Origin: a virus
Lineage: Duplodnaviria > Heunggongvirae > Uroviricota > Caudoviricetes
Reading direction: 5' to 3' (one strand)
DNA: 33,871 nt
IMG/VR virus record: IMGVR_UViG_2579778856_000005
Positions 1-19,410 of the stretch are shown in pieces (position 1 is the stretch's first letter; every line of letters begins with the position of its first letter). Position numbers and translations under genes: made by a program. Below the pieces are notes generated by a model. That model saw nothing but the letters and a program-made list of their open reading frames with translations. It did no database searches and was not told the DNA's origin.

Positions 1-1284
1 ATGGAATCCCTAACGTTACAACCCATCGCTCGTGTCGATGGCACTATTAATCTGCCCGGTTCCAAGAGCGTTTCTAACCGCGCTTTATTGCTGGCGGCAT
101 TAGCACACGGCAAAACAGTATTAACCAATCTGCTGGATAGCGATGACGTGCGCCATATGCTGAATGCATTAACAGCGTTAGGGGTAAGCTATACGCTTTC
201 AGCCGATCGTACGCGTTGCGAAATTATCGGTAACGGTGGTCCATTACACGCAGAAAGTGCCCGGGAGTTGTTCCTCGGTAACGCCGGAACGGCAATGCGT
301 CCGCTGGCGGCAGCACTTTGCCTGGGTAGCAATGATATTGTACTGAGCGGTGAACCGCGAATGAAAGAACGCCCGATTGGTCATCTGGTGGATGCGCTGC
401 GCCAGGGCGGGGCGAAGATCACTTACCTGGAACAAGAAAATTATCCGCCATTGCGTTTACAGGGCGGCTTTACTGGCGGCAACGTTGATGTTGATGGCTC
501 CGTTTCCAGCCAGTTCCTCACCGCACTGTTAATGACTGCGCCTCTTGCGCCGGAAGATACGGTGATTCGTATTAAAGGCGATCTGGTTTCTAAACCTTAT
601 ATCGATATCACCCTCAATCTGATGAAGACGTTTGGTGTTGAAATTGAAAATCAGCACTATCAACAATTTGTCGTAAAAGGGGGGCAGTCTTACCAGTCTC
701 CGGGCACTTATTTGGTTGAAGGCGATGCATCTTCGGCTTCTTATTTCCTGGCAGCAGCAGCAATCAGAGGCGGCACTGTAAAAGTGACCGGCATTGGACG
801 CAACAGTATGCAGGGTGATATTCGCTTTGCTGATGTTCTGGAAAAAATGGGCGCGACCATTTGCTGGGGCGATGATTATATTTCCTGCACGCGTGGTGAA
901 CTGAACGCCATTGATATGGATATGAACCATATTCCCGATGCGGCGATGACCATTGCCACCGCGGCGTTATTTGCAAAAGGCACCACCACGCTGCGCAATA
1001 TCTATAACTGGCGTGTTAAAGAGACCGATCGCCTGTTTGCGATGGCAACAGAACTGCGTAAAGTCGGTGCGGAAGTCGAAGAGGGGCATGATTTCATTCG
1101 CATTACGCCACCGGAAAAACTGAAATTTGCTGAGATCGCCACTTATAATGATCACCGGATGGCGATGTGTTTCTCGCTGGTCGCATTATCAGATACGCCT
1201 GTGACGATTCTTGATCCAAAATGTACCGCTAAAACTTTTCCAGACTATTTCGAGCAATTGGCGCGGATAAGTCAACCCGGCTGA
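1..1284 (+). CDS. aroA: 3-phosphoshikimate 1-carboxyvinyltransferase (EPSP synthase), complete
   Basis: 427-aa ORF beginning [37 protein letters not shown] and ending [13 protein letters not shown]; recalled as near-identical to E. coli K-12 AroA over its full length. Not verified by search. Confidence 0.97.
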
Positions 1285-1329
1285 ATGAATAACGGGCGAT
1301 AACATAGACAATCCTTTCTTTTCAAAGAC

Positions 1330-1357
1330 GTCGGCACATTGCCGGCGTTTTTTTTCG
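1330..1357 (+). terminator. Rho-independent terminator downstream of aroA
   Basis: GC-rich inverted repeat cggca-cat-tgccg followed by a run of eight T (gcgttttttttcgg), about 50 nt after the aroA stop. Confidence 0.55.
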
Positions 1358-1461
1358 GACCTTGTGGGGTATTTTTATTAATGGTAGCGTTAATTATCAA
1401 TGTAACTTGTTGATACATAATGTTTATATATAATTAATCAACGGATGATTCACATGAAGAA

Positions 1462-1537
1462 TGATGCGCCGCGCGATAAATGCACTCTATCTTGTGCGAT
1501 AAATGGCATCCACGCGGCGTTTCATTATTTGAAAAAG
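1462..1537. repeat. Putative prophage terminus with Mu R-end-like transposase-binding repeats
   Basis: TGATGCGCCGCGCGATAAATGCA matches about 17 of 22 positions of the recalled phage Mu right-end terminal sequence (TGAAGCGGCGCACGAAAAACGC). Further CGATAAATG and GCGTTTCATTATTTGAAAAAG motifs follow. Recall-based, not verified. Confidence 0.45.
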
Positions 1538-1539
1538 AA

Positions 1540-2112
1540 TTACATTTCAGGTTGCGTTATGACAGTCCCAACAGGGTGATAGCGGTAGATCGTTGACAGT
1601 CCAATATCATAGATAATTGCCAGCCGCTTTCTGTCATACCCTTTCTGGAGCAATCTTGCGATCTGCTCATGCTGCTCCTTCGTCAGTTTCGGGCGACGTC
1701 CTCCAACTCTTCCTTGTGCTCGCGCAGCAGCCAGTCCAGCCAGCGTGCGCTCAACTATCAGTTCACGCTCCATTTCTGCCAGTGCACCCATCATATGAAA
1801 AAAGAACCTTCCCATCGGAGTGCTGGTATCGATTGAATCCGTCAGACTGCGAAAATTGACACCTTTTGCGCGTAGCTCTTCTGTGAGAGCAATGAGGTGT
1901 TTCATTCTTCTACCCAACCGATCCAGCTTCCAGACCACCAATGTATCCCCTCTTTTAAGGCACTTTAAAGCGCGTTTCAGGCCTGGTCGTTCCGACTTGG
2001 TTCCGCTCATTTTGTCCTCAAAAATCTGTTCACATCCTGCGCACATTAATGCATTGCGTTGCAAATCTGTGTTTTGGTCATTTGTTGACACACGTATGTA
2101 GCCAATCAGCAT
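1540..2112 (-). CDS. Serine DNA invertase, Pin/Gin/Cin/Hin family
   Basis: 190 aa from the internal ATG (MLIGYIRVSTNDQNTDLQRNAL...), with the catalytic Ser in the YxRVST motif and a C-terminal HTH. Strongly resembles e14 Pin and Mu Gin as recalled. The track ORF extends 43 codons upstream without an obvious start signal; an AAGGGAG RBS precedes the ATG at 2112. Confidence 0.92.
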   Translation of the reverse strand: MLIGYIRVSTNDQNTDLQRNALMCAGCEQIFEDKMSGTKSERPGLKRALKCLKRGDTLVVWKLDRLGRRMKHLIALTEELRAKGVNFRSLTDSIDTSTPMGRFFFHMMGALAEMERELIVERTLAGLAAARAQGRVGGRRPKLTKEQHEQIARLLQKGYDRKRLAIIYDIGLSTIYRYHPVGTVITQPEM

Positions 2113-2168
2113 TAAAAATACTCCCTTTTGAGTGGTTAAAGTACTGAGATAATGTGGGGAGGATTTGA

Positions 2169-2193
2169 GAGATAAACGTTGGTTTGGGGGAAG
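2169..2193 (+). other. Crossover site A (gix/cix-like) in front of cassette 1
   Basis: AGATAAACG-TT-GGTTTGGGGGAAGG. The half-site on the complementary strand (TTCCCCCAAACC) fits the invertase half-site consensus TTnTCnnAAACC, with a 2-bp core TT. Confidence 0.6.
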
Positions 2194-2612
2194 GCTCTGC
2201 ATTGCCTGTTGGTGTGCCTGTTCCATGGCCCACCGCCACACCGCCAGCAGGCTGGTTAAAGTGCGACGGGCGCGCCTTTACAAAAGAACAATATCCTGTT
2301 CTGGCCAGAGTCTACCCGACCCTCCGTCTTCCCGATTTACGCGGTGAGTTTATCCGTGGATGGGACGACGGGCGAAAAGTGGATACAGGGCGCGATCTGC
2401 TTTCACGGCAGGATGGTACAAGTTTTTCTCATTACGCAGGTAATTTTGACATTGGGTCTGGTCATTCAATCAATAACTATGACCAAATCGTTGACAACCA
2501 ACCTGGATTCTCCCGTTTTTCATTTGCAGGTCCTTCGCGAGGCGATGGGGTTAATTATGTGACCATTCGTCCCCGTAACATTGCGTTTAATTACATCGTA
2601 AGGGCGGCATAG
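2184..2612 (+). CDS. Silent tail-fibre C-terminal cassette 1 (promoterless, no ATG; collar-like conserved block plus variable tip)
   Basis: Open frame starting inside the crossover site. Encodes GEGSALPVGVPVPWPTATPPAGWLKCDGRAF...LPDLRGEFIRGWDDGRKVDTGR, then a unique ~58-aa tip, then the conserved end RPRNIAFNYIVRAA. Confidence 0.75.
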   Translation: MGEGSALPVGVPVPWPTATPPAGWLKCDGRAFTKEQYPVLARVYPTLRLPDLRGEFIRGWDDGRKVDTGRDLLSRQDGTSFSHYAGNFDIGSGHSINNYDQIVDNQPGFSRFSFAGPSRGDGVNYVTIRPRNIAFNYIVRAA

Positions 2613-2633
2613 AAACGTTGGTTTAGGAGAAGG
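2608..2633 (+). other. Crossover site B in front of cassette 2
   Basis: CATAGAAACG-TT-GGTTTAGGAGAAGG; same architecture as site A, with the conserved half abutting the repeated coding block. Confidence 0.6.
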
Positions 2634-2652
2634 CTCGGCGCTACCCGTTGGT

Positions 2653-3126
2653 GTGCCTGTTCCGTGGCCCACCGCCACACCGCCAGCAGGCTGGTTAAAG
2701 TGCGACGGGCGCGCCTTTACAAAAGAACAATATCCTGTTCTGGCCAGAGTCTACCCGACCCTCCGTCTTCCCGATTTGCGCGGTGAGTTTATCCGTGGAT
2801 GGGACGACGGGCGCAAAGTTGATACGGGGCGTTCATTGCTAAGTGGTCAGGCTGCAACATTTATTCGTACAGCTTTGCAGGATTATTACGGTTACGATCT
2901 GAATACTAATGTCAAAGTAGGTATCGCTTTTGCTACTGCTGATTCTGTTATAACCGTTGGAAACCCAGCTAATCCTAAAGCAGGAAATAATAGCGATTAT
3001 GTTCCTGCATCAGCAGATAACTCTATAACGGGTATTCAAAGGACAGCGGAGGATAATTTTACCGGGGCATGGATATCAATGCGCCCCCGCAATGTTGCGT
3101 TTAATTACATCGTAAGGGCCGCATAA
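2653..3126 (+). CDS. Silent tail-fibre C-terminal cassette 2
   Basis: The frame is open from just after the cassette-1 stop through the site (..RNVGLGEGSALPVGVPVPWP..). Same conserved block, unique AT-rich ~82-aa tip, same C-terminal RPRNVAFNYIVRAA. No ATG or RBS. Confidence 0.75.
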   Translation: MPVPWPTATPPAGWLKCDGRAFTKEQYPVLARVYPTLRLPDLRGEFIRGWDDGRKVDTGRSLLSGQAATFIRTALQDYYGYDLNTNVKVGIAFATADSVITVGNPANPKAGNNSDYVPASADNSITGIQRTAEDNFTGAWISMRPRNVAFNYIVRAA

Positions 3127-3147
3127 AAACGTTGGTTTAGGAGAAGG
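3122..3147 (+). other. Crossover site C in front of cassette 3
   Basis: CATAAAAACG-TT-GGTTTAGGAGAAGG. Confidence 0.6.
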
Positions 3148-3166
3148 CTCGGCGCTACCCGTTGGT

Positions 3167-3598
3167 GTGCCTGTTCCGTGGCCCACCGCCACACCGCCAG
3201 CAGGCTGGTTAAAGTGCGACGGGCGCGCCTTTACAAAAGAACAATATCCTGTTCTGGTCAGAGTCTACCCGACCCTCCGTCTTCCCGATTTGCGCGGTGA
3301 GTTTATCCGTGGATGGGACGGTGGTCGCAAGGTTGATACCGGGCGTGCGCTACTTTCATTTCAGGAAGGGACTATCGTATCCGGTTTTGATGATAATGAT
3401 ACCGGAGATATCAGTTCGCTCGGCTCTACACAATACGGATTTGGTGACGCTTTAACCTCTAATCAACTGGGGGTCTTAAATGGCAAAAAGTGGATATTTG
3501 ATGCATCCTCTAAAGGTGCACAAAGATATGACTGGTGGGCTTATGTATCAGCTCGCCCCCGCAATATCGCATTTAACTATATCGTGAGGGCGGCGTGA
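3167..3598 (+). CDS. Silent tail-fibre C-terminal cassette 3
   Basis: Same conserved block, unique ~70-aa tip, C-terminal RPRNIAFNYIVRAA. Confidence 0.75.
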   Translation: MPVPWPTATPPAGWLKCDGRAFTKEQYPVLVRVYPTLRLPDLRGEFIRGWDGGRKVDTGRALLSFQEGTIVSGFDDNDTGDISSLGSTQYGFGDALTSNQLGVLNGKKWIFDASSKGAQRYDWWAYVSARPRNIAFNYIVRAA

Positions 3599-3604
3599 TA
3601 CCGT

Positions 3605-4219
3605 TCAGCCGGCAAGCGCCAGTGGCGCTTCCGGCCAGCTGATTTCAGGTGCCTTGCTGATATCCAGTGCGTTCAGCTCGTCGATATAATCCAGCACGGC
3701 GTTCAGTTTTGCCGTTTCTTCTGGTTTCAGACTGCGACCAGCACGCAGTTTGAGGTTGATAAGATCGACGGACGCCATCGCCTGTTTCACCCGTTGCTGG
3801 CGTTGCTGTCTGGCAACCTCCAGTTCTGCGGCTCGCTGCCGTTCAGTATCGGTTACCCACGCCTCACCGTTCCAGGTATCCCATGGCGTGGCTGGCTGTT
3901 TTGTGGTGGTGTCCGCCGGGTAATCACCCGGTTGGGTAATCAGAACGGGGTTACCGTTCTCCGTGCTGTATACCGTCTCGCCGCGGTGATCAGGCACATG
4001 CTCCCACCCGTTCAGCGTGGCAGTCCGGCAAACCACGTAACCCGAAATTGCTTCCGGCGGTGCATCGGCGCACGAATGTGCCGGAGTACCCACCCCAAGG
4101 GCGAGATACTCCACAGAGGATGAGGTGTATTCCCGGGTTTCCTCGTCATAGTGATATACAGTGATATCGCCCGCTACAGTGGCGATACCGTTTTCATCCA
4201 GAACTGCAGTGTTACTCAT
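3605..4219 (-). CDS. Tail fibre assembly protein (Tfa family)
   Basis: 204 aa immediately downstream of the fibre gene (TAATG overlap). GEAWV motif and C-terminal LNAVLDYIDELNALDISKAPEISWPEAP, typical of lambda Tfa / Mu U-type chaperones. Confidence 0.85.
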   Translation of the reverse strand: MSNTAVLDENGIATVAGDITVYHYDEETREYTSSSVEYLALGVGTPAHSCADAPPEAISGYVVCRTATLNGWEHVPDHRGETVYSTENGNPVLITQPGDYPADTTTKQPATPWDTWNGEAWVTDTERQRAAELEVARQQRQQRVKQAMASVDLINLKLRAGRSLKPEETAKLNAVLDYIDELNALDISKAPEISWPEAPLALAG

Positions 4220-5550
4220 TAAACTGCCCTCACAATGTAATTAAGTGCAATGCTACGGGGTCTGACAGTGATACCCTTCGCATACCCGCTTCTGATAGAG
4301 GTCAGAATAGTAGCCTGCATACCATTGTCTGACATTGCCACGACAGGATCGCTGAATGTTGTCCCGTCCGGCATTTTAAAGCTGCCCTCACGAAGGTCTG
4401 TAATGGAATCTTCATTGTTGAATCCCATGCCGACTATCCCCGAGGTTCCCGTAGTGTCCTGGTTATAATAATCCAGCATTGCTGTTCTTAACAGCGTTGC
4501 CCCTTGTGCGGACAGCAACTTACGTCCTGTATCAACTTTGCGCCCGTCGTCCCATCCACGGATAAACTCACCGCGTAAATCGGGAAGACGGAGGGTCGGG
4601 TAGACTCTGGCCAGAACAGGATATTGTTCTTTTGTAAAGGCGCGCCCGTCGCACTTTAACCAGCCTGCTGGCGGTGTGGCAGTGGGCCACGGAACAGGTA
4701 CACCAACGGGCAGCGCCGAGCCTTCCCCCAAACCAAGGTAATTGAGGACATCTTTTATACTGCCCTTAGCGATAATAGCGCGACCAATAGCTGTAAGGGT
4801 TGCCAGCTCTGCGCGGTCTGCTCCGGTAAAATAAGGCAACCGATCTGCTGCAGTGGCAAGTCCTGCCAGAGCAGTGAGCGTGGCATCTGCCGGTTGTTTT
4901 CCGTTTGCCAGATCGTATGCAGCCTTGACCGCTTTCGGTGTGGCGGCCAGTATTTCAGACGTGCTGTTGATGGCACTGCTCAATTGTACGGTGCCTTTTG
5001 CCGTCAGCGAGGCAGCAGGCACTCCCGTTATCTGACTCCACGGGTGAGTGTGGCTGACGGGCGCCTTGCCGGCTGCAAGGTCGTATGCAGCCTTGACCGC
5101 CTTCGGCGTGGCAGCCTCAGTTTCTGATTGACTGTCCGTGGCGCTGCTCAGTTGTACGGTGCCTTTTGCCGTCAGTGAAGCCGCAGGCACTCCCGTTATC
5201 TGACTCCACGGGTGAGTGTGGCTGGCAGGCGCCTTGCCGGCTGCCAGGTCGTATGCAGCCTTGACCGCTTTTGGTGTGGCGGCCAGCGTTTCAGAGGTGC
5301 TGTTGGTGGCACTGCTCAGTTGGGTGAACCCCTTAGCTGTCAGTGTCGCGTCCGGGTGGTTACGGGAACGTACGTGTTCAGCCAGTGACTGTGCGGCTTC
5401 CTCCGTTTTCTTCTTCAGCCATTTCGTCCTGTTTGCCAGTTGCCGGGGGGCTCGATTTGATATCCCGTCTGCACCACCCAGAACCGGATCTGATGTCTCC
5501 AGTTGATAGATATTTTCTTCCCACTTTTCTGTTTCATTCAGGTTTCCCAT
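4219..5550 (-). CDS. Tail fibre protein (currently expressed copy)
   Basis: 443 aa from the ATG at 5550 (GGGAG RBS). Shaft repeats (TAKGTVQLSSA..ETEAATPKAVKAAYDLA..SHTHPWSQITGVPA). The C-terminal third carries the same collar-like block as the three cassettes and ends RPRSIALNYIVRAV. Confidence 0.9.
   Translation of the reverse strand: MGNLNETEKWEENIYQLETSDPVLGGADGISNRAPRQLANRTKWLKKKTEEAAQSLAEHVRSRNHPDATLTAKGFTQLSSATNSTSETLAATPKAVKAAYDLAAGKAPASHTHPWSQITGVPAASLTAKGTVQLSSATDSQSETEAATPKAVKAAYDLAAGKAPVSHTHPWSQITGVPAASLTAKGTVQLSSAINSTSEILAATPKAVKAAYDLANGKQPADATLTALAGLATAADRLPYFTGADRAELATLTAIGRAIIAKGSIKDVLNYLGLGEGSALPVGVPVPWPTATPPAGWLKCDGRAFTKEQYPVLARVYPTLRLPDLRGEFIRGWDDGRKVDTGRKLLSAQGATLLRTAMLDYYNQDTTGTSGIVGMGFNNEDSITDLREGSFKMPDGTTFSDPVVAMSDNGMQATILTSIRSGYAKGITVRPRSIALNYIVRAV
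4716..4745 (-). other. Crossover site D inside the expressed fibre gene (inverted relative to A-C)
   Basis: Reverse complement reads AATTACC-TT-GGTTTGGGGGAAGG. The conserved half is identical to site A; the site spans codons N-Y-L-G-L-G-E-G at the constant/variable boundary. Confidence 0.6.
4880..5340. repeat. About 170-bp in-frame tandem repeats (three copies) in the tail-fibre shaft
   Basis: gtcgtatgcagccttgaccgc recurs at ~4920, ~5090 and ~5258; the protein motif TAKGTVQLSSA...AATPKAVKAAYDLAAGK..SHTHPWSQITGVPAASL is repeated. Confidence 0.6.
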
Positions 5551-5552
5551 AA

Positions 5553-6131
5553 TCAACTGCTCCCGTGGTTATAACTGCCATCATGGATGGCGGTATTGTT
5601 ATAGCGAATGGCCACAGACTGATACTCCAGGCTGGCCAGATGGCAGCGGGCCGGTGCAAATGCAGCGAGCGTCTGACGCAGCATCGCGGCCTGATCGTTA
5701 GTAATGGGCTGTTTCAGAATAACGCGATAAACCGCCCAGGCGGCTGCATCTCCATGAACAAACAGTCCGTTATAGCTGCGATTGCCGTCGTAACTGAGAC
5801 GACCTGTGCCTTCAATCAGATCCACTTCACCAAAGCCAAAACGGCGGATAACTTCCCGGATTGACCACGGCGTCCCTTTATACCGGTGCAGTTCGATGGC
5901 TGCTTTTATAAGCATGCGGCGAACATCGTCCGATTCCGCCAGCTCCCAGCCATCGCCAGACAGTGAGAACTGCTCGCCCAGCCATGGCAGCGCGGAACTG
6001 TCGACGATATCGACGAGAAAGACCATCAGTACGCTCAGGTCGATGTTATCCAGCCGCCCTGCCAGTCTTCCCAGCGTCCTGAGACTGATATCACCCTCAA
6101 GCGGTGGCGGGAGTTGTAATGGCTCAGTCAT
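5553..6131 (-). CDS. Baseplate/tail protein, P2 gpI-like (Mu gp48-like)
   Basis: 192 aa from an ATG overlapping the upstream stop; sits between the J-like gene and the tail fibre. Family assignment by position and recall. Confidence 0.7.
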   Translation of the reverse strand: MTEPLQLPPPLEGDISLRTLGRLAGRLDNIDLSVLMVFLVDIVDSSALPWLGEQFSLSGDGWELAESDDVRRMLIKAAIELHRYKGTPWSIREVIRRFGFGEVDLIEGTGRLSYDGNRSYNGLFVHGDAAAWAVYRVILKQPITNDQAAMLRQTLAAFAPARCHLASLEYQSVAIRYNNTAIHDGSYNHGSS

Positions 6132-7227
6132 CAGACACTCCACTCATGTTAAGTGTGATCGCCGTACAGTTTGCCCATTCGTTTTCTGCCACCACCCGCA
6201 GTGCCGGTGTCACCAGTTCAACCTGGTACACCCCGGAAACGGACAATGCACTGATAATCTGGCTGGGGACAATATCACGCCCCAGCGTGGCGGCACGTGA
6301 TGCCACCCAGTTCTGTATGGCGCTGTTAGCGGCATCTTTTACAGACCTGGCATCCTGATCACGATAGATCGTAATCCTGGCTTCAATGGTGTAATCCACC
6401 TTCACTGGTGTTTTAGCCCGCACTGTATCAGTGAGTGGCCTGACTTTCTCATCAGAGCAGAAACTCTCTACCAGCGTGAGAACACCGCCGTCCGGCAGAC
6501 CGGTACTGAGCAGCGGATACAGATCTACGGTCCCGGGAACCGGGGAAAGCACAGCAACATCGACAATGTTGGGATGGGCCTGCATGGCATGAAAGCGGTA
6601 TGCGCCACGGCTTCCGGCATTGGTGAATGACTCCGGGGCCAGCCTGATACGCTCCCGGAGCCTGTCATCGTCTTCCTGTTCTGAACCGCCGGAACTGGCC
6701 ATCAGATTGCTCACCAGCAGGTTAACGTTATCAATCTCATCGAGTAACTGACTGACCTGCGCAGGTTGCCAGCCGTTACCAGCGGTACCGGGTTCGGTAC
6801 AGGTGGACGTGACATTGACCAGCAGCAATCCGGCCTTCAGTACCACATCTGTATCGGTGGCAAAAATAACGCTGTCGGAAGCGCTGACGCGGGTGCCTGC
6901 CGGGATCAGCACATCAATGGCCAGTGCCTCATCTACGGAGAACTGGAGCGTGGTGGTGGCAGGCTGCGCGGCAAGACGGTATACACCGACCAGTTCACCG
7001 AGGTAATCAATCATCGGCTCACGGGCAAAGGCGACCAGATTCTGCTTTGCTGCCTCCTGTACCGCAACCCTGACCAGCATTTCGCGATAGGCCCACAGAT
7101 CAATCAGCAGACGTTCTGCCTGTGCCGGGTACAGCGTTTTGCCGGTATCCGCTTCATACTTCGCAATCATTTCTGCCGTGATTTTGTCGGCATCGCGTTC
7201 AATAAAATCGGGTTCTGTCAGCGCCAT
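6124..7227 (-). CDS. Baseplate J-like protein (Mu gp47 / P2 gpJ family)
   Basis: 367 aa; AGGAG RBS; classic position between the W-like and I-like genes. Confidence 0.85.
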   Translation of the reverse strand: MALTEPDFIERDADKITAEMIAKYEADTGKTLYPAQAERLLIDLWAYREMLVRVAVQEAAKQNLVAFAREPMIDYLGELVGVYRLAAQPATTTLQFSVDEALAIDVLIPAGTRVSASDSVIFATDTDVVLKAGLLLVNVTSTCTEPGTAGNGWQPAQVSQLLDEIDNVNLLVSNLMASSGGSEQEDDDRLRERIRLAPESFTNAGSRGAYRFHAMQAHPNIVDVAVLSPVPGTVDLYPLLSTGLPDGGVLTLVESFCSDEKVRPLTDTVRAKTPVKVDYTIEARITIYRDQDARSVKDAANSAIQNWVASRAATLGRDIVPSQIISALSVSGVYQVELVTPALRVVAENEWANCTAITLNMSGVSDD

Positions 7228-7565
7228 AGCAGCTCCTGAGTCCGGGTCTGTCCGTCTGAGCCTTTCCAGCTCACCCGGAGCGTAAGATGTTCGCCGTCGA
7301 CGGCGGGTTTAACTGACATAAGCTGGCAGCGGGGCTCCCAGCGCCGGATGGCATCGACGGATTCGCGCACCACATGCGGAATGGCCCGGTCTACAGGCCA
7401 GTCGATATAAAGATGCAGATTGCTGCCGAACTCCGGGCGATGCGGGTCGCTGCCGCGGGGAGTCCGCAGGATAATTTGAATCGCCTGCCGGATATCATCC
7501 AGCCCCCGGACAATTTCGCCGGGAGCCTGCAGGGCTGGTTGCCAGAATACTGAGGTTGTTTTCAT
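7218..7565 (-). CDS. Baseplate wedge protein, gpW/gp25-like (Mu gp46)
   Basis: 115 aa, the size and position of GPW/gp25 family proteins. Confidence 0.8.
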   Translation of the reverse strand: MKTTSVFWQPALQAPGEIVRGLDDIRQAIQIILRTPRGSDPHRPEFGSNLHLYIDWPVDRAIPHVVRESVDAIRRWEPRCQLMSVKPAVDGEHLTLRVSWKGSDGQTRTQELLWR

Positions 7566-7619
7566 GGGGGCAGTATTGCCCCCGTGCGGGAACGCTGATA
7601 TTAAAGGCGTTTAAAAAGC

Positions 7620-8216
7620 TCAGTGGGAGTGGTGGCTGGAGTTTTCGCCATCAGACAACATACTGCCCGTGGCATGGACATTCCCTTTAATCTCGATATT
7701 GCCATGGATGGTCGCGGTAACACCTTCACCACCAGAACCCGCCATGCCTCCTTCGTAAATCAGCTTACCCCTGACACGCAGATCTCCGGTAAGTTCGGTT
7801 TCCGGTGCGTCAATCGTGGCTTTCTGTGTTTTCAATACCACATCAGCACCACACTCAATGACAATATGCTCAATGCCGCCCCGGATGATCAGAGTGTGCG
7901 TCTTCCGGTTGTAGCTGTACTCTGCACCATCAGCAAACCGGGTTCCCCGGATATTTTTGTCACTGAACGGTGGTTTATCGACGTCTGAATACACCGCGCC
8001 CAGAATAACACCATCCTCGCCGTTGGCATCGAGCAGCACCTCAACCTGCTCCCCCACGTCAGGGAGCCAGTAATCTTTGTTATCCTGGGTATTGCGCTGC
8101 AGCACGTTAAGCCAGTTTGTGCGCAGGTTATCGCATTCAGGCAGACGAACGCGGGCCTGAACCCTGTCGGCATCAACGGCACTGACCGTACCGACCTGAC
8201 GAGTGACACCAGTCAT
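7620..8216 (-). CDS. Baseplate assembly / spike protein, gpV-like (Mu gp45)
   Basis: 198 aa with a Gly-rich C-terminus; ATGA overlap with the upstream gene. Confidence 0.8.
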   Translation of the reverse strand: MTGVTRQVGTVSAVDADRVQARVRLPECDNLRTNWLNVLQRNTQDNKDYWLPDVGEQVEVLLDANGEDGVILGAVYSDVDKPPFSDKNIRGTRFADGAEYSYNRKTHTLIIRGGIEHIVIECGADVVLKTQKATIDAPETELTGDLRVRGKLIYEGGMAGSGGEGVTATIHGNIEIKGNVHATGSMLSDGENSSHHSH

Positions 8217-9367
8217 TTTTTCTTCTCCTTAATCACCGTCGATGTACTGCCATCCGGGTGATAAACCGTGAGTTTCTGAGTTTTTTGTTTTTTCCCTCTT
8301 GTGACTGGCCCCCGTGCCACTTCCAGCTCTGTGGTGTAGCCGCTGTTACGGTCAAACGCATGGCGGGCAGTGGTTATGAGCCATGGCCCGGATAACTGCC
8401 CAAAACTCACCAGTTCAATTTTGTTGCCTGCTGTCAGTTGAGGTGTTCCCGTCAGCGTCAGGGAGCCGTTCTGCTGGTATTCGTTATGTCTGGCCAGTGC
8501 TGAATCCGCTTTAATCCGGGCACTGTCCGGGTCGCTGACGCGGCTGTTAACTTTAAGTGAGTCAGCGCTGGTAACCTTACCACCTTTGAGCTTTTTGTCG
8601 CTTTCACGGGTACCACCATCAGCTTCGTAGACGATCAGTTTTTTACTGCTGCTTTTCTGGTGTTTTACCTTTGCAGATTTATAGACCCGGTTGATGGTGT
8701 CACGCAGGGAAAAGCGGGCCACATCCTGCGGTTTTAACTGCCTGACCGGCTCCTGACTGCGCAGTGTGGCCAGATGAGAAAAAATCAGCTGGTCACTGAC
8801 CACTTTCACTGCATAACCATACTCGCTGGCCAGCCGGCGCAGAAAACCCACGTCGGTTTCAGCATACTGGGTCACCCGGTCGATTCTGATGGACTCAATG
8901 CTGCCCACCAGTTTCAGCCGGTGCTTTCTGGCAATCCGCCCCGCAACAGCTGCCAGCGTGGTGTTCTCAAAACCACGACTGGTTTTAGTCCGCAGGGCAC
9001 TGTTAACCGAGGTGGCCACCCCACGGATAGAAACAACGGAAGCGGGCGAACTCACTTCGATCTCGTCTATAGAGAACGTACCGCAGGACAGCAGCTTCTC
9101 GCCCTGATAGCCCATTTTCAGCGTCAGCGTGTCACCCTTGCCCGGATACCATTTATCCAGCCAGCGGCCATCGGTGTCGTCCAGCTCCACCTCAATGGTA
9201 TCGGACTCATTTTTGATGTTATCGCTCCAGGTCACACGGGTGACATAAGGCGCGATATCAGAGGTGATGTTTTTCTGCAGATACCACAGAGTGAACACCG
9301 GTGTCAGCACATCGCTGACGCCGGTTAACGCTGATGTGACTTGCGCAGTGCTGTTTATCTCAGCCAT
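8213..9367 (-). CDS. Tail/baseplate hub protein, P2 gpD-like (Mu gp44)
   Basis: 384 aa between the X-like and V-like genes. Confidence 0.8.
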   Translation of the reverse strand: MAEINSTAQVTSALTGVSDVLTPVFTLWYLQKNITSDIAPYVTRVTWSDNIKNESDTIEVELDDTDGRWLDKWYPGKGDTLTLKMGYQGEKLLSCGTFSIDEIEVSSPASVVSIRGVATSVNSALRTKTSRGFENTTLAAVAGRIARKHRLKLVGSIESIRIDRVTQYAETDVGFLRRLASEYGYAVKVVSDQLIFSHLATLRSQEPVRQLKPQDVARFSLRDTINRVYKSAKVKHQKSSSKKLIVYEADGGTRESDKKLKGGKVTSADSLKVNSRVSDPDSARIKADSALARHNEYQQNGSLTLTGTPQLTAGNKIELVSFGQLSGPWLITTARHAFDRNSGYTTELEVARGPVTRGKKQKTQKLTVYHPDGSTSTVIKEKKK

Positions 9368-9567
9368 GGGGCAATATCCTCTTCTGTACGGGCTTCTTCA
9401 GCCTCAATCACCGGGATCAGTAACAACAGCCCGGAGGGCAGCACCGGCGTGATGGCCACGTGCGGATTGGCGGCAATAATCCGGGGATAGCCCAGCGGGT
9501 CACCGTAGTACTGCCATGCCAGCGAATCCCAGCGCTCTCCGTCACGGGTAACATGTTCAAGAAACAT
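9355..9567 (-). CDS. Tail protein X (LysM-like)
   Basis: 70 aa from the ATG (MFLEHVTRDGERWDSLAWQYYGDPLGYPRIIAANP), a P2 gpX-type LysM fold as recalled. Confidence 0.75.
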   Translation of the reverse strand: MFLEHVTRDGERWDSLAWQYYGDPLGYPRIIAANPHVAITPVLPSGLLLLIPVIEAEEARTEEDIAPWLR

Positions 9568-10451
9568 CACACACTCCTCGTCAGTATTCTGGCGGCCATT
9601 GCACTTAATCCCGGAGACATGCGGTTGAATGCTGTTCCGACGGCGTTAAGCTGCCCGGAAACGGTATCCAGAGCACCTGCAATATTTCTTTTGTCCACAC
9701 CACTCAGCGCAGACTGTGCCTGCTGTACATACGTGGCTGCTTCGCTGGCTGTTCTGGCCAGACTGATGGCATCGGGCATGGATTCAGAGAGTGCGTTAAA
9801 CGCCGGAACACTTTTCCCCAGAGCCCCGGAGATATTACCCAGTCCGCTCATCAGCCCCGGCACACGGGTCAGTGCGACAACGGGGTTATCCTTCATTTTC
9901 TGTGTCACCCGAACGGCGCTGATAGTGGTCTGGAGTACAGACTGCGCCTGTTTCGCATAGTTGACGCCGTTGCGGATGAACTGCGCCACCCCTGAAGGTG
10001 AAGGTATGGCACCGGAGACCGCCCCGACACCCGGGAGCTTCGTGCGTATTGCCGGTGGTTGCAGAGGATTTTTCGGGTCACCGGTGTATTCCCGGAGAGA
10101 CACGGTGGCACTGACAGCCAGCACGTTGCCGGTACTGTCAGTCTGCTCGCTGGTTGCAGTCACATCGGTGATCACGAACCAGCCGCGATAGTCACCGTTG
10201 CCGAAGACCAGCGCCAGTGCCTGATGGGCTTTCATGGCTGTTCGCAGTCTCGCCAGCTCCACATCGGGTACACAATAATGCTGATGGAAAACCAGAGTTA
10301 TCTGGATTTCGTCCAGCCTGTCGCCGACGAACTGCAGACCAGGCTTACCCCCGATGCGGGCATGCTCCGCATAATCGACGCCGAACGTGGCCTCGAAGCC
10401 GTCCCAGTAGGTAATCAGCTCAAACTCAATATCACCCAGTACGGCAAACAT
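9567..10451 (-). CDS. Tail protein with P2 gpU-like N-terminal domain and a long Ala/Ser-rich C-terminal extension
   Basis: 294 aa; the N-terminal ~125 aa (GKPGLQFVG..ITL..ALALVFGNGDYRGWFVITDVTATSEQ) resembles the gpU tail-terminator family. Intact only in this copy. Confidence 0.7.
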   Translation of the reverse strand: MFAVLGDIEFELITYWDGFEATFGVDYAEHARIGGKPGLQFVGDRLDEIQITLVFHQHYCVPDVELARLRTAMKAHQALALVFGNGDYRGWFVITDVTATSEQTDSTGNVLAVSATVSLREYTGDPKNPLQPPAIRTKLPGVGAVSGAIPSPSGVAQFIRNGVNYAKQAQSVLQTTISAVRVTQKMKDNPVVALTRVPGLMSGLGNISGALGKSVPAFNALSESMPDAISLARTASEAATYVQQAQSALSGVDKRNIAGALDTVSGQLNAVGTAFNRMSPGLSAMAARILTRSV

Positions 10452-13402
10452 CAGCGGTACTCCTTACGTTGTTTCTGAGCCAGCAGACGCTCCAGCATTT
10501 TTTCCAGCTCATGCAGACTCATATTCAGGGCACCAGTCAGTCCTGCAGGCGCTGTGGTTTCCCTGCCATTGAGGAAAAACTGAGGATTAAAGCTGACCTG
10601 GATACCACCAGACGTTCCACCGCCGGTTGCAGCTGCACCACGGCCTGAATATCCGGCAGCCAGGATTTCAGGCGAGGGGATACGGGGAACATCCGGTGTC
10701 ATCTCATTTGCCAGACGTTGCCCTGGTAAAATCGATGCCCGGGTGGAGAGCGGAATAGCGGGCATGGAAGACAAACTATTGATTACGGCTCCGATCGCAT
10801 TTTTAGCAGACGACATAAACCCATTGATATCGGGCAACGGCATACTGAAGCGAACACCTGAAGTGTTATCCCGTATTTCTGGCCCCTGAATGCTCACGGG
10901 CATTCTGGGGAGCAGTTCACTGGCCATTCGCTGCCCGGCCAGAGCTGCAAGCGGAGTGGTCCGCTGCAGGCCAATGGCGGCCCCCTGCGCGATATTGTCA
11001 CCAAAGCCCATAAACACGCGGCTCGGCGAATGAATGCCCAGCTTTTCGCTGAACCAGCCACTGATGCTGTCACCCATTCCGGTTACACTGGATTTGAGCG
11101 ACTCCCATTTGTTTTTGATACCGTTAATCAGACCGTCGACAAGATGGCCACCGAAGTCGGTGAACTTTGCCGGCAGATCAACACCAAGATATTTCAGCGC
11201 AGCTGCAAAGGCTTTATAGAGCAGACCTGCCGGCGACCAGTTAATCAGCAGCTTACCAGTTCCCGCGATACCGCCGTTAAAGGCTTCCTGAATGTCAGCC
11301 CAGCACTGTTTAAACCAGCTACTGATGCTGTCACCCATTCCGGTTACACTGGATTTGAGCGACCCCCATTTGTTTTTGATACCGTTAATCAGACCGTCGA
11401 TAAGATGGCCACCGAAGTCGGTGAACTTTGCCGGCAGAGCAACGCCGAAATATTTCAGCGCAGCCGCAAAGGCTTTATAGAGCAGGCCTGCCGGCGACCA
11501 GTTAATCAGCAACTTACCAATTCCCACAATGCCGCCGTTAAAGGCTTCCTGAATGTCAGCCCAGCGCTGTTTAAACCAACCACTGACAGCCCCCCAGTTG
11601 CGGTAGATAAGGTAAGCTGCTGTCGCGACAGCGGTGATAACGAGACCGATGGGATTCATCATCAGCGCTCGCCCAATCCAGAGAACGGCACGTGCAGCGC
11701 TCATAAAACCGCGAACGAGGCTGCCCGCCAGAACTTTGCTGAGTTTCAGTCCTCCGCTGGTCAGTCGGCTGAATCCAGTGACAAGCCAGCGTAATTTGCC
11801 ACCTTCTCCGAGTGCGGTAGTCAGTCGATGCCAGTTGGTCCGGAGTAAAACAGTAGTTTTCCAGACGTTCACAAAGGGGGAAATAAGGAGATTCAGCCCC
11901 AGTTTGAGACCAATAGTCGCTATCTTAATCGCAAGGAGCGCACTGATGAGCTTAAAAGCCCCACTGACAAATTGCGGGTGAGTCGCTACCCAGTGTTTTG
12001 TCCCCTGAATGAGTGGGAGCAGTTCCTGAGTCAGAGAAATAAAAGATGGAGCTAATTGATCGCCCAGCGTAATTGCCAGATCGCGACTGCTGACCATAAG
12101 TGTTTTAGTGGCTTCAAGGGGAGATTTCAGCCGCTGATCATAAGCACTGGCAAGCAAATCGTTATCCGCAGCCCTGAGAGCACCGGCACGGATCTCTCGA
12201 TATCTGTCCATGTTGGCCAGCATCGGGCGGATAAATGCCATGACCTGCATATCCGCGAACATATCGCCCAGACCAAAGTTTTTCGCCAGAGCCTGAAGTG
12301 CCTCATCTCTTGCCGTATCATTCTTTATTTTCATGGCTGATTTGAAGCCGGCCAGCGCTTCGGGGCTTTTGGCATTGAGGTAACGTTCTATAACACTCAA
12401 CATCCCTTCAATCGGAGAGATCCCCGCAGCTTTATAACTCGCAATAGATCCCTGCAAATCAATACCCAGATCAGCAAACTGTTTCTGAGTATCGCGGGCA
12501 AAAATTTTGGTAAGAAAGTTTTTAAAATTATTGGCTGCTTCGTCGGTGGAACCTGCACCGATTTTTGCTATCTGGAGACTGGCCCCGATTTCAGCAACAG
12601 CCTCTTTTCCACTGGCAATACCCGCCATCATTGGGGCCAGGGACTGCATCCACTTGACCTGATCCGGGATTTCAAATGACCCCTGGTCACCGGCATAAGC
12701 CATAATATTCTGAACGGCACCAAAATCTCTGGCCGCGCCTTTCAGGGAGTTTTGCCAGACTGCGGCCACTTTTGCCCAGTCCTGAGCAGACGTGCGTGTT
12801 GCCGTTGCCGCGCGGGCAATATCCGGCATCAGAAAACCGATATCTGACACATTATCAATATTGTCGCTGATGAGTGAACCCACCGCCTCCTGCAGCTCAT
12901 CCTGATACTGATTGTATTTAAGCGCCCAGCCTTTTATCTGTCCGGCAAGTGCATCCCGCGTTTTATTGTCATATTTTGCGGTGATCGACATATCAATCAT
13001 TTTGTCCTGAAAAGACATGGACTGCTGAACGGCAGGGGAAACCGTATGATAAACAGTCTGTGCCATGCCATACGCTTCAATCCCCTGACCATACAGCGCC
13101 ATGCGGTTAGCTTTCAGCGCATCACTGGTAGCGGATGCCGCTGACAGACGGCGCTGCTGGCGCTCAATTTGCTCCATGGTGCGGCTTACCCGCAGCAGCT
13201 CGCTGTTGAGATGCTGCATCCGGGAAGAACCCAGTTGACCATAACGTTCTGTTGCACGGGTTAAAGCGTTCTGACGTTCCTGCAGGCGGCGTGAGGTATC
13301 GCTCAGGGAATCAAGCGCACGGCGGGTACCGCTCATTGCAGAACGGAATGTGCTGCCAATCATCCCGCCGATAACAACGCCGACTGAAAACTGTCCCGAC
13401 AT
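10451..13402 (-). CDS. Tail tape measure protein (copy 1)
   Basis: 983 aa, N-terminal coiled coil, internal 86-aa tandem repeat, GGAGG RBS. Confidence 0.9.
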   Translation of the reverse strand: MSGQFSVGVVIGGMIGSTFRSAMSGTRRALDSLSDTSRRLQERQNALTRATERYGQLGSSRMQHLNSELLRVSRTMEQIERQQRRLSAASATSDALKANRMALYGQGIEAYGMAQTVYHTVSPAVQQSMSFQDKMIDMSITAKYDNKTRDALAGQIKGWALKYNQYQDELQEAVGSLISDNIDNVSDIGFLMPDIARAATATRTSAQDWAKVAAVWQNSLKGAARDFGAVQNIMAYAGDQGSFEIPDQVKWMQSLAPMMAGIASGKEAVAEIGASLQIAKIGAGSTDEAANNFKNFLTKIFARDTQKQFADLGIDLQGSIASYKAAGISPIEGMLSVIERYLNAKSPEALAGFKSAMKIKNDTARDEALQALAKNFGLGDMFADMQVMAFIRPMLANMDRYREIRAGALRAADNDLLASAYDQRLKSPLEATKTLMVSSRDLAITLGDQLAPSFISLTQELLPLIQGTKHWVATHPQFVSGAFKLISALLAIKIATIGLKLGLNLLISPFVNVWKTTVLLRTNWHRLTTALGEGGKLRWLVTGFSRLTSGGLKLSKVLAGSLVRGFMSAARAVLWIGRALMMNPIGLVITAVATAAYLIYRNWGAVSGWFKQRWADIQEAFNGGIVGIGKLLINWSPAGLLYKAFAAALKYFGVALPAKFTDFGGHLIDGLINGIKNKWGSLKSSVTGMGDSISSWFKQCWADIQEAFNGGIAGTGKLLINWSPAGLLYKAFAAALKYLGVDLPAKFTDFGGHLVDGLINGIKNKWESLKSSVTGMGDSISGWFSEKLGIHSPSRVFMGFGDNIAQGAAIGLQRTTPLAALAGQRMASELLPRMPVSIQGPEIRDNTSGVRFSMPLPDINGFMSSAKNAIGAVINSLSSMPAIPLSTRASILPGQRLANEMTPDVPRIPSPEILAAGYSGRGAAATGGGTSGGIQVSFNPQFFLNGRETTAPAGLTGALNMSLHELEKMLERLLAQKQRKEYR
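11040..11585. repeat. 258-bp in-frame tandem repeat inside the tape measure gene (two full copies plus a partial third)
   Basis: ccagc(c/t)actgatgctgtcacccattccggttacactggatttgagcga recurs at 11055 and 11313; the protein repeat is WFKQ(R/C)WADIQEAFNGG...SVTGMGDSIS. Confidence 0.8.
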
Positions 13403-13477
13403 AGTGGTTAACCTCCGGGGAAGGTGAAAAGACGTGAGGGGATAACGCAGAACAGCCGCTACTGGCGGCTGTCTGTA

Positions 13478-13895
13478 CTATGATTTGTCGCCGTACTCGC
13501 TTTTGATTTGCTCTTCAGCCTGCTCCAGCCACATCTCCAGATCGTCAGTATCGAGGGCATCAATCTCCCCCGGCTGAAACCGGAACCATCTCGCCAGCAG
13601 CCCCTGCGCCTGCGTCAGCGCCCTGGTTGCTCTCACCCATCCCCGTGATGAGCTGAAATCGTTTCTGTAACTGCAGGTAATCAGCCAGATCCATATTGTC
13701 GAGATCTTCCGGGAGAAGACCAGTACTGCGGGCAATCAGCGGTTCGTCCCAGTCTGCCGGGTTTTTGCTGATTTTGCGCACCTGCTTCAGGTCTTTTACC
13801 GTCAGGCGTTTCAGTTCAACCAGCTCAATTCTGGTGCCTGCAGCAGTGGTGAAGGGATAAGACAATTTAAAAGTATCGGATGGGGTCTGTGACAT
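13478..13895 (-). CDS. Tail assembly chaperone, putative frameshifted long form (GT / E+E' analogue)
   Basis: A second ORF (13478-13735) overlaps the 3' end of the chaperone ORF in the +1 (equivalently -2) frame and extends it by ~28 aa of plausible protein sequence (..IDALDTDDLEMWLEQAEEQIKSEYGDKS). Confidence 0.5.
13560..13895 (-). CDS. Tail assembly chaperone (lambda G / P2 E analogue), short form
   Basis: 111 aa, acidic, between tube and tape measure; AGGAG RBS. Confidence 0.8.
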   Translation of the reverse strand: MSQTPSDTFKLSYPFTTAAGTRIELVELKRLTVKDLKQVRKISKNPADWDEPLIARSTGLLPEDLDNMDLADYLQLQKRFQLITGMGESNQGADAGAGAAGEMVPVSAGGD

Positions 13896-13949
13896 GATTG
13901 TGCTCCTGTGTAAGTTCAGGGCAGTATGTCGGGAGAAGCGCGTGACGGA

Positions 13950-13990
13950 TATTAAAGGAGATTAAGAAGAAGGGGCCGGAGCCCCTGTGA
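13950..13990 (-). terminator. Putative intrinsic terminator/attenuator between tube region and chaperone
   Basis: Perfect palindrome AGGGGC-CGGA-GCCCCT (13971-13986) followed on the minus-strand transcript by a T-rich run (ttcttcttaatctccttt). Confidence 0.5.
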
Positions 13991-13992
13991 TG

Positions 13993-14274
13993 TCAGCAAG
14001 TGCGAAACCCCTTGCAGTTACGCAGGAAAGCGATGAGAAGCGTCTTTCCCTCAGATTTGCCGATGCCGGAGAACCAGTGGTCGGGAGGCTCCCATGCTTC
14101 AATCAAATCCGCCAGTTTGCGGGCCTTTGAACGTGTGCAGTCAATCGGGTCATTGGTTTTACGGGTATTAAAAAGGGTTTCCACCCCCGGAATATCAAGG
14201 AGGGTAAACCACGTACCATTTGACATGCCCAGTGCCGCACATCGTCCTCCTTTATCCGTCAGTTCAACACTCAC
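13993..14274 (-). CDS. Hypothetical small protein between tube and chaperone
   Basis: 93-codon open frame in a 380-bp gap; start codon ambiguous (GTG at 14274, or an internal ATG with a distant AAGGAGGA). Confidence 0.35.
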   Translation of the reverse strand: MSVELTDKGGRCAALGMSNGTWFTLLDIPGVETLFNTRKTNDPIDCTRSKARKLADLIEAWEPPDHWFSGIGKSEGKTLLIAFLRNCKGFRTC

Positions 14275-14276
14275 CG

Positions 14277-14798
14277 TCAGCCCCCGATATTGATACGGTA
14301 GTCAGTCAGTTGATCAACACCGCCGACCCGGAAGATGTTGGCCAGATAGTCCAGTTGCAGCAGCTCTTCACCATCCAGTACCTGTCTGATATACGTGCAG
14401 GTGAAGCTACTGGAGAACTCGGCGTTCTCGTGCTGTTTGAACGTCCCCAGCGGGTTCTTCTTGAACATAATCGTCAGGAAGGTGACCAGCGGGATTTCGT
14501 CAATCAGCCCCTGCGAGCTGTAGCGCTGGACGCTGGAACGACACTGCAGTGCCAGCGACCTGTACGGGTTCGCGGCAGACAGCATCGCATCGCGGTAAAA
14601 GCTGTTCCATTTGATTTCGCCTTCCAGCTTGTCAAAACCAGCCGGGAGTTCCACCTTACCCACCATCCCCAGCGCCTTGTGTTCCTGCATAATCATGGAG
14701 ACATCGGGGAGTTTAACTTCCTCAGCCCGTCCCAGCAGGTTAGTACCATCCAGATAGATGTTGGCATTCGTGATGCGGTTTATCTCAATCTTTGACAT
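14277..14798 (-). CDS. Tail tube protein (copy 1)
   Basis: 173 aa, ATGA overlap with the sheath stop; contractile-tail tube family by size and position. Confidence 0.9.
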   Translation of the reverse strand: MSKIEINRITNANIYLDGTNLLGRAEEVKLPDVSMIMQEHKALGMVGKVELPAGFDKLEGEIKWNSFYRDAMLSAANPYRSLALQCRSSVQRYSSQGLIDEIPLVTFLTIMFKKNPLGTFKQHENAEFSSSFTCTYIRQVLDGEELLQLDYLANIFRVGGVDQLTDYRINIGG

Positions 14799-19253: not shown

Positions 19254-19410
19254 AGTGGTTAACCTCCGGGGAAGGTGAAAAGACGTGAGGGGATAACGCA
19301 GAACAGCCGCTACTGGCGGCTGTCTGTACTATGATTTGTCGCCGTACTCGCTTTTGATTTGCTCTTCAGCCTGCTCCAGCCACATCTCCAGATCGTCAGT
19401 ATCGAGGGCA

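Follow-up and report, generated by a model that had tools for sequence, protein, structure and literature searches.

An inversion array with AT-rich silent tail-fibre tips, probably from a pool common with P1-like phage-plasmids, in a Mu-like prophage of Escherichia coli

The window, by which we mean the whole analysed stretch of 33,871 nucleotides (IMG/VR virus record IMGVR_UViG_2579778856_000005), holds an element that behaves like a Mu-like transposable prophage adjoining aroA in Escherichia coli. At the invertase end of this prophage lies an inversion module with a DNA invertase gene, three start-less silent cassettes (cas1, cas2, cas3), a tail-fibre assembly gene (tfa) and a tail-fibre gene, the 3' part of which forms the expressed cassette (Table 1). 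An earlier note on this DNA had described the variable tips of all four cassettes as AT-rich, mutually unrelated and horizontally acquired specificity modules, spliced between fixed and GC-rich recombination flanks. We report here the architecture of the module, the relationships and the base composition of its tips, and how far this description applies.

Architecture of the inversion module

The invertase has the domain plan of the Din family, with an N-terminal catalytic domain (Resolvase, expectation value E 8e-51) followed by a C-terminal helix-turn-helix (HTH_7, E 1e-12), and it is 77% identical to Gin of phage Mu and 73% identical to Cin of phage P1. A 233-residue open reading frame (ORF) starting from the GTG at 2241 is probably an artefact of the ORF finder. 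Din-family systems have a Fis-dependent recombinational enhancer in the 5' part of the invertase gene. In the window the 5' end of this gene likely holds such an enhancer: nucleotides 19-90 of P1 cin, to which it aligns, are annotated as the enhancer of Cin-mediated inversion (AF234172). The mean column identity of this putative enhancer region in an alignment of Mu, P1 and the window is 87%, for a region that is also coding sequence.

Four 26-bp sites match the annotated cixL site of P1 (CAATCCTAAACC TT GGTTTAAGAGAA, AF234172), including its TT core. Sites s1 to s3 share one orientation and precede one silent cassette each; site sE, within the tail-fibre gene, is oriented the other way round and is comparable to the reverse complement of P1 cixR (TTATCCAATACC TT GGTTTAAGAGAA). 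Crossover sites of Din-family systems consist of two imperfect inverted 12-bp half-sites on either side of a 2-bp core, and recombining partners are inverted relative to each other. In the window the right half-site of all four sites is of the GGTTTnGnnGAA type, being either GGTTTAGGAGAA or GGTTTGGGGGAA. As the sites are found at the 5' edge of the collar, collar and tip would invert as a single unit. A promoter and terminator scan of positions 1300-5800 gave no more matches than were obtained in shuffled sequence.

All four cassettes are in frame with intact reading frames and follow a common plan, in which a 70-codon collar block ending in KVDTGR (PF07484 in each, E about 1e-15) is followed by a tip of 58, 83, 69 or 86 codons (cassettes 1, 2, 3 and expressed) and then by a tail of 14 codons (RPRNIAFNYIVRAA, with slight variation). 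Tip boundaries were set by a four-way alignment of the cassettes, and the earlier coordinates of the silent tips lie within about 20 nt of them. The stop codon of cas1 falls within the left half of s2. With four sites and four alternative 3' ends for one constant gene the region has the make-up of a multiple-inversion (Min-type) array; related arrays carry 3 to 9 cassettes.

A single tfa gene serves four tips. The stop codon of the expressed fibre gene and the ATG of tfa overlap (TAATG), an arrangement of translational coupling to the expressed tip varE. The gene is convergent with cas3, which therefore is never expressed with tfa co-oriented; cas1 and cas2 could be expressed with tfa in either orientation. 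The plasmids pKOr024_2 and pF374-2, discussed below, also have a single tfa in the stretch examined.

The conservation of both flanks of the tip can be related to the tail fibres of phage T4. The two collar segments of the T4 gp37 tip (Protein Data Bank (PDB) entry 2XGF) are matched by the N-terminal 65 and the C-terminal 27 residues of a cassette, the C-terminal motif NIAFNYIVR included, and the PDB sequence matches of the collar module are 2XGF and 9CUY. In an AlphaFold monomer model of cassette 2 the collar and the C-terminal strand reach a predicted local distance difference test (pLDDT) score of 87-93, and the best fold matches of this model are 2XGF (E 2.6e-7) and gp12 (1OCY). In gp37 the collar domain D10 consists of residues 811-881 and 1010-1026, with domain D11, the receptor-binding domain, inserted into it (PMC6957217). 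By analogy, the collar block and the C-terminal strand represent two halves of one gp37/gp12-type collar with the tip as inserted domain, and both flanks would be conserved because they belong to one domain. The variable tip may then bind the receptor.

The constant part of the fibre gene contains three 168-nt Phage_fiber_2 repeats (4898-5401). The annotated length of the expressed fibre is 445 aa in the window, and in two relatives it is 542 aa (prophage L006) and 640 aa (L007). In L006 there are additional repeat-like matches, so that the number of repeats, and hence the length of the fibre, may vary.

Table 1. Features of the inversion module and its surroundings in the window
Feature	Position	Strand	Basis or remark
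E. coli aroA	1-1284		start of window
Probable end of transposable prophage	1455-1540		first letters TGAAG; repeated GCGATAAATG motifs inside
Din-family (Gin/Cin-like) serine DNA invertase, 190 aa	1540-2112	-	Pfam Resolvase and HTH_7
Putative recombinational enhancer, in 5' end of invertase gene	2023-2094	-	aligns with P1 cin nt 19-90
cix-like site s1	2167-2192	+	GAGAGATAAACG TT GGTTTGGGGGAA, core TT 2179-2180
Start-less cassette 1 (cas1)	2184-2612	+	silent
Collar block, cassette 1 (70 codons, LGEGS...KVDTGR)	2184-2393	+	Pfam Collar PF07484, E 6.5e-16
var1, AT-rich tip of cassette 1 (58 codons)	2394-2567	+	four-way alignment
C-terminal tail of cassette 1 (RPRNIAFNYIVRAA and stop)	2568-2612	+	aligns with T4 gp37 C-terminus
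cix-like site s2	2606-2631	+	GGCATAGAAACG TT GGTTTAGGAGAA, core 2618-2619
Start-less cassette 2 (cas2)	2623-3126	+	silent
Collar block, cassette 2	2623-2832	+	Pfam Collar
var2, most AT-rich tip (83 codons)	2833-3081	+	four-way alignment
Conserved C-terminal tail of cassette 2 and stop	3082-3126	+	alignment
cix-like site s3	3120-3145	+	CGCATAAAAACG TT GGTTTAGGAGAA, core 3132-3133
Start-less cassette 3 (cas3)	3137-3598	+	silent
Collar block, cassette 3	3137-3346	+	Pfam Collar
var3, AT-rich tip of cassette 3 (69 codons)	3347-3553	+	four-way alignment
Conserved C-terminal tail of cassette 3 and stop	3554-3598	+	alignment
Tail-fibre assembly gene (tfa), sole one of the module	3605-4219	-	Pfam Caudo_TAP, E 5.6e-27
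Tail-fibre gene, 445 aa	4219-5556	-	Phage_fiber_2 repeats and Collar domain
Conserved C-terminal tail of expressed fibre (RPRSIALNYIVRAV and stop)	4219-4263	-	alignment
varE, expressed tip (86 codons)	4264-4521	-	alignment
Collar block, expressed cassette	4522-4731	-	Pfam Collar, fibre residues 285-332
cix-like site sE	4723-4748	-	minus strand TCCTCAATTACC TT GGTTTGGGGGAA, core 4735-4736; inverted relative to s1-s3
Constant N-terminal part of tail-fibre gene	4732-5556	-	Pfam Phage_fiber_2, E 5.4e-56

Tips and cassettes common to other elements

Matches that carry collars and tips exist in roughly 1,300 E. coli genomes and about 150 plasmids. To describe the distribution of the tips we counted their occurrence in 5,426 complete E. 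coli genomes. The tip var1 is present in 519 genomes, with 106 plasmid places, and var2 in 250 genomes, with 107 plasmid places. The other two were found almost entirely on chromosomes (var3 in 464 genomes) or almost only there (varE in 599 genomes). A contiguous cas1-cas2-cas3 array at an identity of at least 95% occurs in 0 of the 5,426 genomes.

At the DNA level the tips have no mutual similarity, save for a weak match over the first 56 nt of var2 and varE. As proteins, var2 and varE share 41% identity over 73 residues (E 2e-11), and var1 and var3 share 32% over 57 residues (E 0.002). The lack of similarity that had been claimed for the tips therefore applies to their DNA, apart from this short match, and not to their proteins, which would fall into two families of distant homologues, var2/varE and var1/var3. 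In addition, the side tail fibres of the lambdoid phages mEp043 and mEp213 match var1 with an amino-acid identity of about 61%.

Two of the tips were found on pKOr024_2 (L004), a P1-like plasmid that encodes an invertase and one tfa and carries nine cassettes, eight silent and one expressed. Its cassettes have tips that are 92.4% (var1) and 95.2% (var2) identical in DNA sequence to those of the window, with a far lower identity of the collars (70-77%, about 72% overall). The discordance is also seen at synonymous sites, where the divergence (dS) between window and plasmid is 0.15-0.29 for var1 and var2 compared to 1.36 for the collar. The ratio of nonsynonymous to synonymous divergence (dN/dS) of both tips between the elements is 0.09-0.16, which shows purifying selection on the tip protein and speaks for functional cassettes. 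Several tips of pKOr024_2 carry HxH motifs (HRH, HAH, HYH), of a kind that resembles the metal-binding motifs of T4 gp37 and gp12; the four tips of the window are without HxH.

A second relative is the 94-kb P1-like phage-plasmid pF374-2 (L050, NZ_OY754373.1) from a hen, with its module at positions 5995-8685. Compared to the window, the invertase is 99.65%, var3 99.5%, varE 99.6% and tfa 96.4% identical, the collars are 93-98% identical, and the constant part of the fibre is 82% identical. Here var3 occupies the expressed position. Judged by these identities, the pF374-2 module represents a very recent transfer between two phage types. We further report that in a related array on the 187-kb plasmid pD72C (L005, NZ_MK419152.1, positions 7769-10968) an ISApl1-mcr-1.1 unit is located between the silent cassettes and tfa, so that a colistin-resistance gene has landed inside a tail-fibre inversion region.

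Natural isomers confirm the mode of inversion. The prophages at aroA in strain 4/1-1 (L051) and strain AR_451 (L001) are exactly two inversions apart, and the TT core is the point of exchange. In both, each right half-site remains linked to its collar and tip, and the left half-sites alone swap partners. By this comparison inversion occurs in nature and the core is where partners are exchanged. The expressed position is taken by var1 in L001, by var2 in L007 and by var3 in pF374-2. A second crossover site in the collar near the invariant core CTTTACAAAAGAACAATATCCTGTTCTGG had been considered, as the collars of L001 seemed fixed while the tips moved; it is ruled out by the exchange at the TT core between L051 and L001. 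The elements L002, L003, L005, L007 and L009 were used via annotation tables or tool-level references only.

The collars themselves are not static. Their 5' parts are paired with different tips in the window compared to L051, L001 and L006, which indicates that crossovers take place inside the collars too, and these pairings seem better explained by homologous exchange than by an extra crossover site. Collar identity is 92-97% within the array of the window and 82-95% within that of pKOr024_2 but 69-76% between the two, and this high identity within arrays together with the low identity between them is a signature of concerted evolution. In the window cas2 is a 514-bp unit between 268-bp direct repeats, and sister prophages at aroA are without cas2 and var2. 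The flanks can therefore not be regarded as the fixed crossover sites they had been taken for: the invertase would act where the 26-bp cix-like sites border the collar on its 5' side, and the collars are mosaic and homogenised within the array. Collar patches, shared tips and the pF374-2 module therefore point to exchange at three scales, namely sub-collar, single tip and whole module.

One may ask if the largest of these scales is sufficient, i.e. if the whole inversion module with invertase, cassettes and tfa was the unit of transfer and the AT-rich tips are the P1-like remnant after resident sequence overwrote the collars. We consider this rather unlikely. It gains from the pF374-2 module, which is almost unchanged next to a fibre constant part of just 82% identity, from the clear homogenisation of collars within arrays, and from the invertase of the window, whose codon usage is nearer to P1-like genes than to the prophage (-26 bits; GC content at third codon positions, GC3, 0.479). 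The codon usage of tfa and varE is prophage-like or intermediate, however, and the cassette content of the elements does not fit a single block: cas2 is present or absent among sister prophages at one insertion site, pKOr024_2 has var1 and var2 in common with the window but not var3, varE or the collars, and var1 and var2 are common on plasmids while var3 and varE are almost only chromosomal. These differences in cassette content imply that units below module size move too, and transfer of whole modules can be regarded as an additional scale of exchange.

Horizontal acquisition, as put forward in the earlier note, is supported for the three silent tips by the 92-95% tip compared to 70-77% collar identity of var1 and var2, by the P1-like codons of all three and by the absence of cas2 in sister prophages. 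They may represent specificity modules exchanged between conserved blocks. The proposal does not extend to the expressed tip, which is not foreign in composition.

Base composition of the tips and a proposed mechanism

The GC content of the silent tips is 0.431 (var1), 0.406 (var2) and 0.430 (var3) compared to 0.564 for 24 other prophage genes, and the difference is larger for GC3 with 0.328, 0.253 and 0.333 compared to 0.626. As empirical null we used 4,697-5,297 length-matched in-frame windows from other prophage genes, of which 0 had a GC3 as low as the silent tips and at most 0.4% a total GC as low. In a 200-bp sliding scan 3% of the windows have a GC below 0.45, and the three silent tips are among those few segments. 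Both the sliding-window and the codon-usage analysis show that composition is not uniform and that the silent tips stand out, as had been suspected. For the expressed tip the same suspicion was not borne out: varE lies outside the segments below 0.45, with a GC of 0.492 (4th percentile) and a GC3 of 0.547 (16th percentile). Compositionally, var1, var2 and var3 are foreign and varE is not.

The collars have GC and GC3 values of 0.586 and 0.514 (cassette 1), 0.600 and 0.543 (cassette 2), 0.595 and 0.529 (cassette 3), and 0.590 and 0.514 (expressed). Their GC at first and second codon positions is 0.67-0.69 and 0.57, respectively, in line with their high content of Pro, Gly, Ala, Trp and Arg. If amino-acid content is taken into account, collar GC is below expectation (z = -2.3 to -3.1), and GC3 is below the prophage mean. 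The flanks are GC-rich in total GC, as described earlier, and owe this appearance to their amino acids and not to their codon usage.

A codon-usage likelihood test favours a P1-like codon table over that of the prophage by 10 (var1), 37 (var2) and 22 bits (var3), and places the silent tips outside all windows of Mu-like prophage genes. In the same test tfa (GC3 0.593) and the fibre constant part go with the prophage table; varE, with a value near zero, and the collars are intermediate. The backbone genes of P1-like plasmids have a GC3 of 0.37-0.45.

It is very unlikely that the AT-richness is a by-product of amino acids suited to a receptor-binding surface (Asn, Asp, Ser, Thr, Ile, Tyr, Phe, Lys) and carries no historical signal. 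The amino acids do bring the expected GC down from 0.56 to about 0.53, which covers most of the mild deficit of varE (expected GC 0.532) as well as the GC-rich look of the collars. When the silent tips are recoded with the codon usage of the prophage, however, their own amino acids still lead to an expected GC of 0.51-0.54, so that amino-acid content explains a small part of the drop. The observed values are 9-13 GC points lower (z = -3.9, -7.8 and -5.6 for var1, var2 and var3). The explanation fails for these three tips because the signal is found at third codon positions, where GC3 is 0.25-0.33 compared to an expected 0.58-0.62. A homologue of the var2 family in Erwinia tasmaniensis has a GC3 of 0.58 without a dip, and AT-richness thus does not appear to be intrinsic to the tip fold.

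Still less probable is that the silent cassettes, being rarely expressed, are under relaxed selection and have drifted by AT-biased mutation. The three AT-rich tips are the silent ones in the window and the expressed tip is not AT-rich, and pKOr024_2 presents the same contrast with a GC3 of 0.25-0.40 for its eight silent tips and 0.53 for its expressed tip. Against this, var1, var2 and var3 are each found at the expressed position in other genomes, their reading frames are all intact, and the low dN/dS given above does not fit relaxation. The GC3 of var2 is 0.253 in the prophage of 56% GC and again 0.253 in pKOr024_2 of 47% GC, the collars of the silent cassettes are less AT-shifted than the tips, and the contrast follows the linkage to tfa, that is the type of module, and not the expression state. 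Decay of the silent cassettes as pseudogenes is likewise contradicted by dN/dS, the intact frames and the expression of the tips elsewhere.

We give hardly any credence to the idea that the flanks made the contrast through GC-biased gene conversion, since, although collars do undergo conversion and mosaic exchange and the collar GC3 of pKOr024_2 (0.38-0.51) is slightly above its backbone (0.37-0.45), collar GC3 in the window (0.51-0.54) contradicts it by lying below the prophage mean of 0.63 and below amino-acid expectation, and it is the tips that stand out from the empirical null and not the collars.

In our opinion the region is, with good probability, an invertase-driven host-range switch whose AT-rich silent tips derive from a cassette pool common with P1-like phage-plasmids. 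The Gin/Cin-family invertase would act on the four 26-bp cix-like sites, and each inversion would join the constant part of the fibre to another promoterless cassette, composed of a 70-residue collar block, a tip of 58-86 residues and a conserved C-terminal strand of 14 residues. The silent tips would originate from a pool circulating on P1-like phage-plasmids (GC3 about 0.40), and they would be AT-rich because the composition of this pool is kept in a prophage with a GC3 of 0.63. Tips may enter and move by homologous recombination and gene conversion, with collar homology on the 5' side and the C-terminal tail and the site on the 3' side, and the same process could homogenise the collars within each array. 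The expressed tip varE and its translationally coupled tfa form a compositionally native module.

Several observations weigh against this reading or narrow it. The tip of the cassette 2 model has a pLDDT below 50, so its fold and its receptor-binding role are suggested by analogy. The module of pF374-2 is nearly identical with its GC-rich collars included, and en-bloc transfer therefore also occurs. Exchange of the tip alone and transfer of whole cassettes followed by homogenisation of the collars fit the data alike, and both directions, prophage to plasmid and plasmid to prophage, would be in agreement with them. The GC3 of the silent tips (0.25-0.33) lies somewhat below that of the P1-like backbone (0.37-0.45), which suggests that P1-like plasmids may be carriers and not the original source. 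Close relatives outside Escherichia were not found when each silent tip was compared by tblastn to 50,697 phage records and var2 to 185,579 species genomes; the nearest relatives of var2 outside Escherichia, in Erwiniaceae and YerA41-like Yersinia phages, have less than 50% amino-acid identity. With respect to the folding of tips without their own tfa, this gene is directed away from the fibre gene in some isomers, e.g. L006.

A more far-reaching proposal is offered tentatively, as we would sooner expect parts of it to fail than all of it to hold. The short, AT-rich cassettes without tfa could represent a distinct class of plug-in receptor-binding domains that belong to one Mu-like/P1-like pool in E. 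coli. The collar repeats would be kept as uniform landing pads by concerted evolution, and capture, loss and re-pairing of tips would proceed by homologous recombination independent of the invertase. Folding of these tips would not need a dedicated co-oriented chaperone.

Relation to known inversion systems and prophage setting

The array can be described as a Din-family multiple-site (Min/p15B) inversion system combined with tips of the gp37 collar type, which extends the classic picture of Mu, P1 and p15B; current understanding is left unchanged by it. The Min multiple-inversion system of plasmid p15B was reportedly described by Sandmeier et al. in 1990 (PNAS 87:1109, cited in PMC5903667). 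It resembles the window in a Din-family invertase adjoining a tail-fibre gene, in more than two crossover sites and in one constant 5' part with several 3' ends, and P1/p15B-like plasmids have closely related arrays with cassettes in common with the window. Taking p15B by this description, the window differs in its host, a chromosomal Mu-like prophage, in its four sites and four tips, and in that three of the tips are short collar-plus-tip units without their own tfa.

The Mu G segment with Gin and the P1 C segment with Cin are similar to the window with respect to the invertase (77% and 73% identity) and the conserved sequence of the putative enhancer region. The sites of the window are also like P1 cixL and cixR, including the TT core. 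In Mu and P1, too, the inversion region is located at the genome end, where it adjoins the tail-fibre genes, and alternates host range. There, however, one segment flips between two full sets, S-U and S'-U', each with its own tfa, whereas the window has four alternative tips with one tfa, and the exchanged unit is of the gp37-type collar-plus-insert kind. The R64 shufflon also fits alternative C-termini to one constant gene by multiple inversions, but there the recombinase is of the tyrosine type (Rci), and the protein that is diversified is a pilus adhesin and not a phage fibre.

For T4 gp37 (2XGF) and gp12 (1OCY) the likeness lies in the sequence match at both ends, the fold match and the split collar with insert (PMC6957217). 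The inserted domain is shorter in the window, with 58-86 compared to 128 residues in gp37, the window tip being modelled at low confidence, and T4 has a single fixed tip and no inversion.

Mosaic tail-fibre genes are said to have been reported by Haggard-Ljungquist in 1992 and by Sandmeier in 1994. The mosaic fibres of P1-like elements are comparable to the window in that tips are common to Mu-like, P1-like and lambdoid (mEp043, mEp213) elements. Variable regions of P1-like plasmids, with the C segment and tail fibres among them, coincide with loci of low G+C (PMC6906374). Beyond these hotspots, the signal in the window is resolved to single tips with sharp boundaries in a prophage of 56% GC and is quantified at synonymous sites. 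Invertase genes have also been described at hotspots of receptor-binding-protein modularity (bioRxiv 10.1101/2024.10.15.618418).

The array may serve as a quantified case of a temperate phage that builds and renews a host-range repertoire: programmed inversion would shuffle whole cassettes, and homologous exchange at the split domain would import tips from other phage types. Natural splice points for the engineering of fibre specificity could be provided by the borders of the tip, which follow KVDTGR on one side and precede RPRN(I/V)AFNYIVRAA on the other. Mu-like prophages and P1-like phage-plasmids are both common in clinical E. coli, ST131 included, and since both element types have cassettes in common, the exchange bears on the spread of host range among elements that also carry resistance genes.

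Beyond aroA the remainder of the window is prophage, with its genes on the minus strand and matches in PHROG to large terminase, portal, major head protein, tail sheath, tape measure and baseplate proteins. In other E. coli genomes the same phage, with the same invertase protein, adjoins aroA or cysM or is inserted within gspL, and the phage therefore behaves as a transposable Mu-like phage. The probable prophage end follows closely on the terminator of aroA and a spacer of very high AT content (GC 0.335, positions 1348-1547), and its start TGAAG resembles the right end of Mu.

A 5,851-bp tandem duplication (10236-16086 and 16087-21937, with 27 mismatches between the copies) takes in the genes for tape measure, tail chaperone and tube together with a portion of the sheath gene, and has left a truncated sheath copy at 14798-16126. 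Its junction is present in 0 of 634 E. coli genomes holding both halves; it may therefore be a rare real duplication, a recombinant of two related prophages or an assembly artefact. Inside the tape measure gene 261-bp tandem repeats, 94-95% identical, are located at 11052-11586 and 16903-17437, and thus are present in both copies of the duplication.

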